In this document: piece by piece, positions 61,121-64,000 of the stretch
Layout of the letters: each line of letters opens with the position of its first letter
How positions within the stretch are numbered: the first letter of the stretch is position 1
DNA from: Alphaproteobacteria bacterium
GTDB taxonomy: Bacteria > Pseudomonadota > Alphaproteobacteria > CAAHEQ01 > UBA3637
Assembly: GCA_045611705.1 (NCBI GenBank)
Contig: JAZKXR010000006.1
Coordinates: 48,538 to 112,537, forward strand
DNA length: 64,000 nucleotides
Direction: 5' to 3'
The notes under the pieces: model-generated
The model's database searches: none
Told to the model about the DNA's origin: nothing
Seen by the model: the letters and a program-made list of their open reading frames with translations, nothing else
Made by a program: the position numbers and the translations under genes

Positions 61121-63196
61121 ATGTCTTTAAATACATTCTTTGCACCAAAATCCGTGGCGGTTGTTGGTGTTTCAGCCGATGAATCCAAATTGGGTGCGGT
61201 CGTTTTTAATAACCTGATTGATGCCGGTTTTGAAGGCAATTTATACGGTGTGAATCCCAAATTGGCCGGTCAGGAATTAAAGGGTAAAAAATGCTTTGCC
61301 TCCGTTCGTGATATTCCCGAGGCCGTTGATTTGGTCGTGTTGTTGGTGCCGGCCCGTTTTTGTGAAGCGGCTGTGGATGATGCCATTGCAAACGGTGCCA
61401 AAAACATCAGTATTATTACCGCCGGTTTTGGTGAAGTCGGTAACAAAGAATTAGAATTGACAATTGCCAAAAAATGTTTGGATGCCGGCATCAATGTGTT
61501 GGGTCCAAACTGTTTGGGACATATTTCCACTTTTGATAAATTAAATGCTTCTTTTGCGCCTTGCTTCCCATTAAAGGGTAATGTGGCCTTTATTTCTCAA
61601 TCCGGTGCTTATTGCAGTGCTATTTTGGATTGGGCCGAAGAAAAAGGCATTGGCTTTTCTCACTTTATTTCCGTGGGTAACAAGGCTGATTTGAACGAAG
61701 CCAGCTTGTTGGACTTCATTCAACATGACGAAAACACCAAGGCTTTTGTGTTCTATTTGGAAGGTCTCAAAAAAGGTCAGGAATTTTTACGTGTATTGAA
61801 AGAAGTTTCCAAAACAAAACCGTGCGTGATTATGGAACCTGGTAAATCCAGCAAAGCCCAAGCCGCCAGCTTGTCCCATACTGGTTCTTTGGCCCCCAAC
61901 TATCGTGTGTTGGAAATTGCCTTGCAACGCAGTGGTGCCATTCAAGTTTACACAACCCGTGAATTGTTCGGTGCTTTGGAATTATTGCAAAACGTCAATC
62001 ACACAGACTTTGGCGGTGCTGTCGGTATTTTGACAAACGCCGGTGGTGTGGGCGTGTTGGCATCGGATTTATGCGAAGAAGCCAAGTTGGATTTGGCAAG
62101 ACCGTCCGAAAAAACAATTGAAGCTTTACGTGCTGTTTTAACACCGGAAGCTTCTGTCGGTAACCCCATTGACGTGGTGGGTGATGCCAAAGCCGATCGT
62201 TATGAAAATGCTTTGCGCGTTTTGTGTGAATCCGGTGAATACAAAAACATCATTGTGTTGTTGACACCACAAATGTCCACAGAACCCGTTGAAACAGCCC
62301 AAGCTGTTATCAAAATGGCCGAACAATATAAAAACGTCAACATCTATTGTTCATTCATTGGTGGTTCCCGTGTGCGTGAAGCTGTTCAGTTGTTGAAAAA
62401 CGCCAAAATTTTGGCCTATGATTATCCGACAGACTGTATCCGTTTGCTCGGCTTGATGAAAGCTCAAATGGCATTCAAAGGATTGCCTGATGTCAAAGTT
62501 GAAACATCTGATGTGCCAGCCGATATTAAAGCCGCTGTTGCTTCTGCCGTTTCCGAAGGTTTGGCCTCTTTGCCGCAATCCACAATGAACATGATTATGG
62601 ATCATTATGGTATTGATTATCCCAAATGCGGTAACTTTACCGACAAAGCCGAAGCTTTGGCCTTTGCCAAAAACATCTTCCCTGTCGTGTTGAAATTGTC
62701 GGCCCCTGATGCCTTACATAAAACAGAAATGAAGGGTATCTATTTGAACATTGATTCCGAAGAAAAATTCAACGAAGCCTTTGATGCTTTAACCGCCACA
62801 ATCGCCAAGTTTGAATTAAAAGGTGCCAGCGTCTTGATTCAAGAAATGATTACCAAAGCCACCGAAACAATTATCGGTGTCAATTCCGATAAGAACTTCG
62901 GACGTGTGTTGGTGTTCGGTACAGGTGGTATTTATACCGAAGTCATGCGTGATACAACCATGCGTATCTTGCCTGCCAATGACTTTGATGCCATGATTAA
63001 AGAAACAAAAGTCGGCACAATCTTGAACGGTGTGCGTGGCGAAGATCCGAAAGCCGTTGGTCCTTTGGCCGATACTTTGGCAAAAGTGCAAAAATTGGTT
63101 TTGGAAATTCCTGAAATCACATCCATTGACGGCAACCCTGTATTGGTCACAAAAGACCGTGCCGTTGTGGTGGACTTCAAAATGTTGTTGAAATAA
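61121..63196 (+). CDS. ADP-forming acetate/acyl--CoA ligase (fused alpha-beta)
   Basis: PKSVAVVG CoA-binding domain, LGPNCLG, SQSGA, SHTGSLA (phospho-His), TNAGG, NPIDV, ATP-grasp with HKTE; no GNAT domain. Confidence 0.9.
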   Translation: MSLNTFFAPKSVAVVGVSADESKLGAVVFNNLIDAGFEGNLYGVNPKLAGQELKGKKCFASVRDIPEAVDLVVLLVPARFCEAAVDDAIANGAKNISIITAGFGEVGNKELELTIAKKCLDAGINVLGPNCLGHISTFDKLNASFAPCFPLKGNVAFISQSGAYCSAILDWAEEKGIGFSHFISVGNKADLNEASLLDFIQHDENTKAFVFYLEGLKKGQEFLRVLKEVSKTKPCVIMEPGKSSKAQAASLSHTGSLAPNYRVLEIALQRSGAIQVYTTRELFGALELLQNVNHTDFGGAVGILTNAGGVGVLASDLCEEAKLDLARPSEKTIEALRAVLTPEASVGNPIDVVGDAKADRYENALRVLCESGEYKNIIVLLTPQMSTEPVETAQAVIKMAEQYKNVNIYCSFIGGSRVREAVQLLKNAKILAYDYPTDCIRLLGLMKAQMAFKGLPDVKVETSDVPADIKAAVASAVSEGLASLPQSTMNMIMDHYGIDYPKCGNFTDKAEALAFAKNIFPVVLKLSAPDALHKTEMKGIYLNIDSEEKFNEAFDALTATIAKFELKGASVLIQEMITKATETIIGVNSDKNFGRVLVFGTGGIYTEVMRDTTMRILPANDFDAMIKETKVGTILNGVRGEDPKAVGPLADTLAKVQKLVLEIPEITSIDGNPVLVTKDRAVVVDFKMLLK

Positions 63197-63198
63197 CC

Positions 63199-63268
63199 AA
63201 GGGGGAACCGATGGAACGTAATTTTTAATATAAACTATCCCCAGCCAAATCGGTTGGGGATTTTTTTA
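63199..63268 (+). repeat. MERNF minigene unit, copy 1 (RBS, 5-codon ORF, terminator)
   Basis: AAGGGGG, ATG GAA CGT AAT TTT TAA (63211-63228), hairpin ATCCCCAGCC/GGTTGGGGAT plus T tract. Confidence 0.7.
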
Positions 63269-63375
63269 TTGACACAAAACAAAAAATGTTGTACTTTCTT
63301 CATCTAAGGAGGAAAATATGGAACGTAATTTCTAAAAAAAACTATCCCCGGCCAAAACGGTCGGGGATTTTTTTT
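63269..63375 (+). repeat. MERNF minigene unit, copy 2 with its own promoter
   Basis: TTGACA-17-TACTTT (63269-63297), AAGGAGG, ATG GAA CGT AAT TTC TAA (63318-63335), hairpin ATCCCCGGCC/GGTCGGGGAT plus T tract. Confidence 0.7.
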
Positions 63376-63511
63376 ATCTGTCCGTTTCAAGCGCTTTTTG
63401 CAATTTTTGCTTTAATTCTGAACGATTTTGATGTTTTGATTTATTAAAAGTTGACAAAATTAAAAAGCGTGATATAATAACCTTGTATTCGAATTAAAAG
63501 GAGAAAAAATC

Positions 63512-64000
63512 ATGTTTAAAAGTTATTCTGTCAACAATCACCAAATGAACATTCCTGAAGACGATATCTTTTTAAAGGGAAAGAAAATTATCCATTTCCC
63601 GATTGAAAACACCCCAGAAGCAGAACATTTTGATGAACGTATTCACAAAGGAACAAAACAACCTACCGAAATTGATCAGTTGATTATCCACTGCTCTTTT
63701 GAACCGGATATTGAACGCGTTTTAAAAGAAAAAAACTATACTGGAGCCCATTATGTTATTCACAGAGACGGGACTATTTTACAATGTATTGATGAAAGTA
63801 AGCGTGCTTATCATGCTGGCGTTTCCTCTTGGGCAGAAGTACGCGGTGGTGATGACAATGTGAACGCTCATGCTATTGGTATTGAAGTAGAAAATCCCAC
63901 TTTTGGCAGTACAACTGAATATTCACCAGAACAATTAGACAGCTTAATTCGCCTTTCAAAAAGTATTATCGCCCGTCACCATATCAAACCTCACAATGTT
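63512..64000 (+). CDS. N-acetylmuramoyl-L-alanine amidase (Amidase_2/AmpD-like), truncated by the window end
   Basis: Manual translation: LIIHCS...AHYVIHRDG...RAYHAGVSSW...VNAHAIGIEVEN. Promoter TTGACA-16-TATAAT at 63451-63478 and RBS AAGGAG. Confidence 0.85.
   Translation, partial: MFKSYSVNNHQMNIPEDDIFLKGKKIIHFPIENTPEAEHFDERIHKGTKQPTEIDQLIIHCSFEPDIERVLKEKNYTGAHYVIHRDGTILQCIDESKRAYHAGVSSWAEVRGGDDNVNAHAIGIEVENPTFGSTTEYSPEQLDSLIRLSKSIIARHHIKPHNV

Follow-up and report, generated by a model that had tools for sequence, protein, structure and literature searches.

Two tandem pentapeptide minigenes downstream of an acyl-CoA synthetase gene

The window analyzed in this study is a stretch of 64,000 nt from the genome of an uncultured alphaproteobacterium (assembly GCA_045611705.1, contig JAZKXR010000006.1), and the elements in question are two five-codon open reading frames (ORFs), both encoding the peptide MERNF, that lie in tandem behind an acyl-CoA synthetase gene near its right end. 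The synthetase gene (61121..63196, +) encodes an ADP-forming enzyme of 691 amino acid residues with the Pfam domains CoA_binding, Succ_CoA_lig, Ligase_CoA_2 and ATP-grasp_5, and it ends with a TAA stop codon. Minigene 1, ATG GAA CGT AAT TTT TAA (63211..63228, +), is located in the 3′ trailer of this gene. It is preceded by the Shine-Dalgarno (SD) sequence AAGGGGG (63199..63205, +), with a 5-nt spacer to the ATG, and it is followed by the intrinsic terminator T1 (63237..63267, +; hairpin 63237-63261), which consists of a 10-bp stem, a 5-nt loop and six T. Minigene 2, ATG GAA CGT AAT TTC TAA (63318..63335, +), is a stand-alone copy between T1 and a second intrinsic terminator, T2 (63344..63375, +; hairpin 63344-63368), with a 10-bp stem, a 5-nt loop and seven T; its SD sequence, AAGGAGG (63306..63312, +), is also placed 5 nt before the ATG. 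A candidate promoter of this second copy (63269..63297, +) is made up of TTGACA (63269-63274), 17 nt and TACTTT (63292-63297). The SD sequences and the candidate promoter were read in the sequence. Unit 1 extends over 63199-63267 and unit 2 over 63306-63375, and the spacer from stop codon to hairpin is 8 nt in both.

This anatomy of two diverged units had been described in a first-pass annotation of the window, and the description was confirmed by the sequence, the pattern counts and the terminator scan. The two ORFs differ only by the synonymous change TTT/TTC. Both hairpins were called by the terminator scan with 10 pairs each, including 6 and 7 G-C pairs, and the alignment agreed with the annotation that they differ by a single compensatory pair, A-U against G-C, with a G-U pair retained in both; the fold of T1 has an energy of -24.4 kcal/mol (z = -3.0). 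When the 18-nt ORF pattern was searched with up to two mismatches, exactly two matches were obtained in the window, compared with a mean of 0.04 in shuffled sequences, of which 0 of 100 reached two. The hairpin-plus-T pattern was matched twice in the window and not at all in the shuffles.

Below, G000 denotes the source genome (0.99 Mb, 91% complete), on which whole-genome scanning was performed, and the other G numbers denote the species-representative genomes in which its relatives were searched. The MERNF ORF occurs in G000 at these two sites only. The genome contains 465 strong SD-plus-ATG sites, 359 of which open ORFs of at least 50 amino acids, indicating that such sites usually mark real starts; 49 open ORFs of at most 13 amino acids (no more than 12 sense codons after the ATG), 12 of them outside long ORFs. 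Of the 49, only the two MERNF ORFs have a terminator within the next 25 nt, so that a genome-wide habit of mini-ORFs preceding terminators was ruled out (2/49). The spacing between stop codon and hairpin was not itself unusual, since 22 of the 87 long ORFs with a terminator in G000 have a distance of 9 nt or less (median 19), and this feature was set aside. A 53-aa ORF running across unit 2 and T2 (63286-63447, +) is most likely spurious: it is without an SD sequence, starts inside the candidate promoter and has a different end in G003.

Conservation of the synthetase-trailer unit in related genomes

The DNA behind the synthetase stop codon was read in 30 loci from 61 family genomes, 43 of which carry the gene with 77-100% identity over its last 200 amino acids, and additionally in G003, giving 31 loci. 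The unit sought by the first-pass annotation in relatives was present behind the same gene in 4 of the 31 loci, namely G000, G003, G019 and G001, with the SD sequence, start codon, length and stop codon kept. G000 and G003 carry two copies each of MERNF (codon 4 AAT), G019 carries one unit encoding MERGF (GGT), and G001 encodes MERAF (GCT) in front of a different terminator hairpin. The expected conservation of the peptide therefore holds for its length and for residues 2, 3 and 5, and fails at position 4, which is N, G or A. When the species genomes were scanned for the SD-plus-ORF pattern, only G003, G019 and G001 were recovered besides G000. The metagenome scan with this pattern gave one match, on an unrelated high-GC contig encoding MERFF, which was taken as chance, and a degenerate peptide-level pattern gave one extra match in 80 family genomes, an intragenic MESRF; a search at order level drew on the identical 80 genomes and gave nothing further.

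In the alignment of the six units, the SD core AAGG(A/G)GG, ATG GAA CGT, the TT of codon 5 and the TAA stop codon were invariant, whereas variation was seen in the spacer between SD and ATG (5-6 nt), in codon 4, at the third position of codon 5 and past the stop codon. The stop-to-hairpin distance was 7-9 nt in all six units, including that of G001 with its unrelated hairpin. Since the synthetase stop codon is 14, 15 and 13 nt from the ATG in G000, G019 and G001, respectively, the frame is not kept and the ORF is not an extension of the synthetase; C-terminal read-through or frameshifting was thus excluded.

The four-fold degenerate sites of the synthetase gene, which are only a proxy for neutrality, were used as the neutral yardstick. 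Four-fold divergence was 0.17-0.19 between G000 and G003, 0.26 between G000 and G019, and 0.53 between G000 or G019 and G001 over the whole gene. Across this last distance, the ORF of G001 was identical to that of G000 at 16 of 18 positions and to that of G019 at 17 of 18 (binomial P of 5e-4 and 5e-5 at p = 0.49, in a post hoc test). The hairpin and all sequence past the ORF in G001 were unrelated to those of the other species, which shows that the conservation ends at the end of the ORF. The proposal of the first-pass annotation that the unit is under selection was supported by this comparison, in which conservation of the ORF greatly exceeded that of neutral sites. The possibility that G001 and the G000 clade had recently exchanged the 3′ end was rejected, because the four-fold divergence from G001 over the last 300 nt (18/46 for G019 and 22/46 for G000, or 0.39-0.48) matched the rest of the gene. 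In the neighboring gene, 26 of the 27 Glu-retaining GAA codons and 8 of the 12 Arg-retaining CGT codons were unchanged; as these codons seldom change there, their invariance in the ORF fits coding constraint combined with codon bias.

The first-pass annotation had named a full MERNF-type gene in relatives as a sign that the units are deletion scars. No full gene starting MER.F was found in the 21 genus genomes, which gave two intragenic chance matches only, nor downstream at the 30 synthetase loci, and this explanation was rejected.

A maximum-likelihood tree was built from 14 of the 31 synthetase sequences (all those from the genus and a few outgroups). G019, G000 and G003 formed one clade, and G001 was placed in the sister clade together with G053, G013, G012, G011, G016 and G060 (supports 81-98), which have plain terminators in place of the unit. 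The G013 locus has a hairpin as in G001 and an SD-like remnant, and about 17 nt are missing at the position of the ORF, so the loss looks like a clean deletion of it. The synthetase-trailer unit is thus an old and dispensable element that is strongly conserved wherever it has been retained. As a separate observation, two sequences labeled as another genus (g3), the synthetases of G053 and G060, nest among those of this genus, which means that the gene has moved or that its tree departs from the genus labels.

Related five-codon ORFs elsewhere in the genus

The 12 short SD-led ORFs outside long ORFs in G000 include, in addition to the two MERNF minigenes, a third pentapeptide ORF, MEDRF (ATG GAA GAT CGT TTC TAA; G000:C9:14879), which has the SD sequence CAAGGAGGG and is located 47 nt before ybaB-recR. 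It is retained in the ybaB leaders of G019 (TTC) and G003 (TTT, with an unrelated 3′ flank). The insertion of about 60 nt in which it lies was absent from the ybaB leaders of G001 and 17 other genus genomes, all of which were read. A tRNA-Leu(CAA) gene (L083:761-847, -) with a promoter matching the consensus at 12 of 12 positions (862-890, -) is placed divergently upstream of the MEDRF-ybaB leader.

Further members of the family were found in leaders of tRNA genes and before a lipoprotein gene. MEYSF is encoded in the tRNA-Trp leader of G016 (Tyr codon TAT) and G009 (TAC), and MDKRW in that of G001; the tRNA-Gly(CCC) leader carries MDKHW in G012 and G013 and MDKRW in G015. MDKKW and MDKKI precede a lipoprotein gene in G013 and G016, respectively. 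The MEYSF ORF is preceded by a called promoter-like site and followed by the tRNA gene, and the same is true of the ORF in the tRNA-Gly leader of G012; the tRNA-leader members have no terminator of their own. The same peptide type (MDKRW/MDKHW) thus occurs in unrelated flanks at different loci, and the family consensus is M-(E/D)-x-x-(F/W). Within loci, synonymous changes were seen as TTT/TTC at two loci, TAT/TAC and AAG/AAA, and the non-synonymous changes fell on position 4 (N, G, A; H, R; K, P), the sole exception being Trp to Ile at position 5. Before the same pal-like lipoprotein gene, G012 has an SD-led tandem pair, MMMDKAC and MMMDKPW (L179, G012:C47 ~1400-1520), which is a second tandem minigene duplication in the genus.

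The size of the family was assessed by pattern scans. The pattern AAGGAG, 4-9 nt, ATG, four codons, TAA gave 19 matches in the genus compared with 11 in the control, and 11 of the 19 were ME..F or MDK.. peptides. With the narrower pattern AGGAG, 4-9 nt, ATG GAN NNN NNN TKB TAA, 11 matches were obtained, all of them in 8 of the 21 genus genomes; none was found in 59 genomes of 15 other genera, and the reversed control gave none in all 80. Among the genomes searched (21 of the genus and 59 others), the family is found only in this genus. In a length test on five genomes, the five-codon pattern gave 11 matches against 8 in the control, and 8 of these 11 were M(D/E)xx(F/W/I), whereas the four-codon and six-codon patterns gave 4 against 6 and 5 against 6. 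By these patterns at least 9 of the 21 genus genomes have one or more family members, a lower bound because the patterns fix the TAA and an AGGAG-type SD sequence. When no SD was required, ATGGAA-N6-TTYTAA gave 45 matches in the genus compared with 11 in the control, and most of those in the 29 loci that were read lack an SD sequence. The SD-bearing matches accepted were those of the synthetase trailer, the ybaB leader and the tRNA-Trp loci; four others flagged by a loose 4-mer SD rule look like chance, and MDKLW in G018, which is without an SD sequence, was dropped. No earlier description of these minigenes was found in open-access full text, and the string MERNF returned nothing relevant by title or abstract.

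The stand-alone copy and recombination between the copies

A second copy with the same upstream stretch was found in G000 and G003 only. The first-pass annotation had assigned it a promoter of its own, TTGACA-17-TACTTT. The two hexamers are indeed in the sequence, the -35 element being perfect; the -10 element matches its consensus at only 3 of 6 positions, and the promoter scan of the window did not call the site. The promoter is weak by consensus, and only the closest species, G003, shares it. The stretch from promoter to unit 2 is 91% identical between G000 and G003, which is no better than neutral. Copy 2 is possibly transcribed independently, in which case an RNA of about 70 nt would be produced.

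The two copies are not independent of each other. Copy 1 of G000 and copy 2 of G003 have the sequence TTT TAA TATAAACT, whereas copy 2 of G000 and copy 1 of G003 have TTC TAA followed by an A-run and CT. This exchange of the 3′ halves between the two genomes indicates that the copies recombine. Local recombination around the repeated terminators, which flank inserted genes in both genomes (see below), may have produced copy 2 as a by-product; the empty-cassette alternative raised in the first-pass annotation keeps some weight for this copy. That copy 2 alone is a relic or empty shell is, on balance, doubtful, though a serious contender.

Comparison with known minigenes and leader peptides

Functional pentapeptide minigenes are, to our knowledge, known mainly from laboratory selections. 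In the case of these resistance pentapeptides (E-peptides), the effect comes from translation rather than from a stable protein, each peptide acting on the very ribosome that is making it. Such pentapeptides are reported to act on the ribosome and to confer erythromycin resistance, a Leu or Ile residue in third place being critical for recognition of the drug (bioRxiv 10.1101/2021.11.29.470318). The units described here resemble them as SD-led ORFs of about five codons, the SD core lying 5-6 nt upstream in all six synthetase-trailer units. They differ at position 3, which is R in MER.F, D in MEDRF, Y in MEYSF and K in MDK.W; the first-pass annotation was right that the Leu/Ile consensus is lacking, and for this reason the minigenes are not members of the resistance-pentapeptide family. 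A further difference is that the E-peptides were selected in the laboratory or over-expressed (one being cryptic in the 23S rRNA), whereas the present ORFs are natural, conserved, and located in tRNA leaders and mRNA trailers.

A close natural counterpart is mccA, whose peptide needs a C-terminal Asn. Its ORF of seven codons is reported to give a short, ribosome-bound and very stable transcript, for which repeated re-initiation by ribosomes has been speculated (PMC4231749). A very short ORF with a strong SD sequence followed by an intrinsic terminator is common to both, in the present case as sequence anatomy. In contrast to mccA, the present ORFs have five codons, end in Phe or Trp instead of Asn, and occur as several dispersed copies in leaders and trailers instead of one gene leading an operon; no MccB-type gene adjoins them (the neighbors are the synthetase, Amidase_2 and hydrogenase-like genes), the rest of the genome not having been searched for MccB.

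Shorter natural minigenes are also known, the bar minigene of phage lambda having two codons. Another two-codon SD-led minigene, mg2 of axe-txe, is natural and its translation is reported to act in cis (PMC8708949); minigenes are also reported to load peptidyl-tRNA hydrolase, and more so when they are shorter (PMC2490762). These share with the present units the character of natural SD-led mini-ORFs, but the latter have five codons and a conserved peptide, and some copies stand alone or in tRNA leaders.

Leader peptides of the MsrDL type were compared as well. In the hexapeptide MsrDL, which precedes msrD, most residues are reported to matter (bioRxiv 10.1101/2021.11.29.470318). As in such attenuators, a tiny ORF is placed directly 5′ of a Rho-independent terminator in all six units. 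Unlike them, half of the units have no co-directional downstream gene, the amidase gene behind unit 2 has its own promoter, no antiterminator fold was obtained, and other family members are in tRNA leaders without a terminator.

Finally, the distance between stop codon and terminator is known to have an effect of its own. In E. coli, the terminator tR2 was reported to be strongly repressed when placed 8-17 nt behind a stop codon, and to reach full efficiency only beyond about 30 nt (PMC4824070). The 7-9 nt of the present units fall in the repressed range. This is, in contrast to the minigenes, a general position effect in E. coli constructs and not a gene family, and short distances are common in G000.

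A proposed function and the alternatives to it

We consider the chances about evenly balanced that the MERNF units are translated minigenes of five codons on which selection acts through the peptide or its translation cycle, and not through the control of one neighboring gene. This reading follows from four features: the conserved blocks are exactly the translation signals, the length of five codons is fixed, peptide types recur in unrelated flanks, and there is no common neighbor gene. It is favored also by the stand-alone units (copy 2 in G000 and G003) and the tRNA-leader units, which have no protein gene to regulate. The first-pass annotation had proposed a micropeptide or ribosome-acting RNA under selection, and the comparative evidence partly supports that interpretation. 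From the sequence comparisons, the conservation suggests that such very short peptides, or the making of them, matter to the cell.

A possible course of events is the following. The family members would be carried by strongly transcribed RNAs, namely an mRNA trailer, the ybaB leader and tRNA leaders. Ribosomes finishing the synthetase would stop on top of the SD sequence of minigene 1 and could re-initiate there, while minigene 2 would be a duplicate between two terminators, possibly read from its own weak promoter into the ~70-nt RNA. Selection would keep the SD sequence, the start codon, the exact length, residues 2, 3 and 5, and the TAA stop codon. In its most likely form, the short nascent chain would act on the ribosome making it, as the laboratory-selected resistance pentapeptides do; this step is put forward tentatively, with a low overall probability. 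A free formyl-peptide would be the less likely form. A bolder version, which we regard as speculative and rather improbable, is that these are the smallest conserved free-standing bacterial genes yet, and that M-(E/D)-x-x-(F/W) nascent peptides act on their own ribosomes and are spread over the most heavily transcribed RNAs. Such peptides might, for example, sense a ligand in the exit tunnel or remove it. With copies in tRNA leaders, behind the gene of a central fermentation enzyme and in a unit that runs from its own promoter to its own terminator, every ribosome would often pass through one.

Several points weigh against selection acting on the peptide or on its translation. Just 4 of the 31 synthetase loci have the unit, and the nesting of G001 among unit-less lineages indicates that it has been lost several times and is dispensable. 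Each locus offers only 3-4 independent lineages, so the statistics are thin, and the patterns and tests were designed after seeing the data. The peptide is not strictly conserved, as position 4 of MER.F varies (N, G, A). Position 5 of the family is not always aromatic (MDKKI), and the residue at position 3 is not the Leu or Ile of the E-peptides. Codons 2-3 of the MER.F units show no synonymous change, so that a constraint at the RNA level may be involved. The 91% identity of the promoter-to-unit-2 stretch is uninformative on constraint at a neutral divergence of 0.17-0.19, and recombination between the copies by itself keeps them alike.

An alternative, possible though unlikely, is that the minigenes are cis-acting ribosome-loading elements, in which the presence of a ribosome on the RNA matters and the peptide does not. 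With a ribosome stopped 8 nt before the hairpin in the synthetase trailer, termination could become weaker or the 3′ end could be protected; a ribosome in a leader would protect the 5′ end or aid the downstream gene. This is consistent with the stop-to-hairpin distance being kept in all six units, even with the different hairpin of G001, and with the strong repression of an E. coli terminator in that range (PMC4824070). It is also in line with the reports that the two-codon minigene acting in cis may stabilize the txe mRNA (PMC8708949) and that ribosome binding stabilizes the mccA RNA and controls its terminator (PMC4231749). Parking of a ribosome, however, needs neither specific residues nor an exact length of five codons nor peptide types that recur at unrelated loci. 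Moreover, three of the six units (copy 2 of G003 and those of G019 and G001) precede a convergent gene, the tRNA-leader units have no mRNA to protect, a spacing of 8 nt is ordinary in G000, and no antiterminator pairing was found in the folds.

More doubtful is that the units are neutral by-products, copy 1 being the head-to-tail remnant of a deleted downstream gene and copy 2 an empty shell of promoter, SD sequence, stop codon and terminator left by recombination between terminator repeats. The hairpin family is confined to G000, G003 and G019, in the first two mainly around the amidase and Bor cassettes described below, and the exchanged 3′ halves, the absence of the unit from most relatives, the apparent clean deletion of about 17 nt in G013, and the synteny break behind the synthetase with a different neighbor in each species all point in this direction. 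A relic, however, would not hold 16-17 of 18 identical positions and an intact SD sequence at a four-fold divergence of 0.53 with unalignable flanks, and the lack of any MER.F-starting gene in the genus genomes and synthetase loci argues against a parent gene. The look-alike ORFs in the ybaB and tRNA leaders, and the restriction to five codons and to one genus, would also be left unexplained.

It is improbable that an RNA element is conserved and the ORF is incidental, for example as a small RNA or a protein site on two GGA motifs (AGGAGG, ~5 nt, AUGGAA). Both motifs are present, codons 1-3 are nucleotide-invariant in all six MER.F units, and copy 2 would yield a ~70-nt RNA with a terminator U-tail, the usual shape of a bacterial small RNA. 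Variation, on the other hand, falls on the SD-ATG spacer, on codon 4 and on a third codon position, leaving the translation signals as the conserved blocks, and MDKRW/MDKHW occur in unrelated flanks. No Rfam 15 family reached its gathering score in the window, where the best match was PyrR with 25.8 bits against a threshold of 54 and all 25 matches listed were sub-threshold. The consensus and single-sequence folds gave the terminator and weak A-U/G-U pairs only (covariation term +0.34), with no antiterminator alternative and no conserved structure beyond the terminator. The protein sponge on GGA motifs, another suggestion of the first-pass annotation, lost ground, because CsrA (PF02599) was not found in G000, which is 91% complete; it was found in 3 of 14 control genomes. 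A classical ribosome-mediated attenuator, which would switch on the amidase when ribosomes stall on MERNF, for instance under antibiotic, is very improbable: the order of tiny ORF, terminator and co-directional Amidase_2 gene agrees with it, and MsrDL is reported to work in this way, the stalled ribosome obstructing a Rho-independent terminator (bioRxiv 10.1101/2021.11.29.470318), but the amidase owns a perfect promoter after T2, is missing at this position in G003, G019 and G001, whose units are followed by convergent genes or by another cassette, and no antiterminator fold was found.

If the selected product is indeed the peptide or its translation, the significance would lie in the size of the genes. 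Annotation pipelines and most small-protein studies are blind to ORFs of five codons. The comparative evidence points to selection having retained a number of such ORFs in gut Alphaproteobacteria that are uncultured and have small genomes, at unrelated loci that include tRNA leaders. Should they be translated and functional, the lower size limit of conserved bacterial genes would fall below the seven-codon mccA, and the minigenes would provide a natural system for effects of short nascent peptides on the ribosome, or a source of free formyl-pentapeptides in the gut.

Neighboring genes and repeated terminators

The Amidase_2 (N-acetylmuramoyl-L-alanine amidase) gene downstream of unit 2 encodes 314 amino acid residues (Pfam PF01510); its 5′ part is in the window (63512..64000, +) and it continues beyond. 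Its promoter, found by the promoter scan outside the minigene units (63451..63478, +), is TTGACA-16 nt-TATAAT with TG, matches the consensus at 12 of 12 positions and is located 75 nt past T2. A third hairpin, T3, follows the amidase stop codon outside the window (G000:C6:113018-113042), with stem and loop identical to those of T2. The amidase region (63376-64000 and beyond; L004:360-1545) resembles a self-contained inserted transcription unit with its own promoter, bracketed by T2 and T3. A hydrogenase-like gene lies on the opposite strand near the locus.

In G003, the order is synthetase, unit 1, a conserved leader with a Bor-family lipoprotein gene (PF06291), a hairpin copy, TTGACA-17-TACTTT, unit 2, which has a poor T-tract, and a convergent gene. 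When the hairpin family (up to three mismatches) was searched in the 21 genus genomes, three copies were found in G000, three in G003 with one more 4 kb off, one in G019 and none in the others. Both inserted genes, that for the amidase in G000 and that for Bor in G003, are thus flanked by direct copies of one terminator. Synteny breaks down behind the synthetase, where each species has a different neighbor. Repeated terminators can thus flank small self-contained genes, such as those for the amidase and the Bor lipoprotein, as they come and go. An integron attC-like site was set aside, as judged by eye against a consensus only.

A stretch of about 30 nt, GGTGATTCC..GTGAGGATTAAACACCTC, is common to the Bor leader in G003 (L006, minus strand, ~2130-2085) and to G011 (L029), about 110-150 nt past the synthetase stop codon. 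It was not found in G000 with up to three mismatches, and no Rfam family matched it, nor any part of the loci L006 (G003), L029 (G011) and L004 (G000), at the gathering score. This stretch could be a candidate cis-regulatory RNA. Among other short SD-led ORFs in G000, two of ten codons, MGDGCPTEKT and MGDGCPTGWA (G000:C7, minus-strand index 354009 and 354273), were observed outside long ORFs, in near-identical repeats 264 nt apart.

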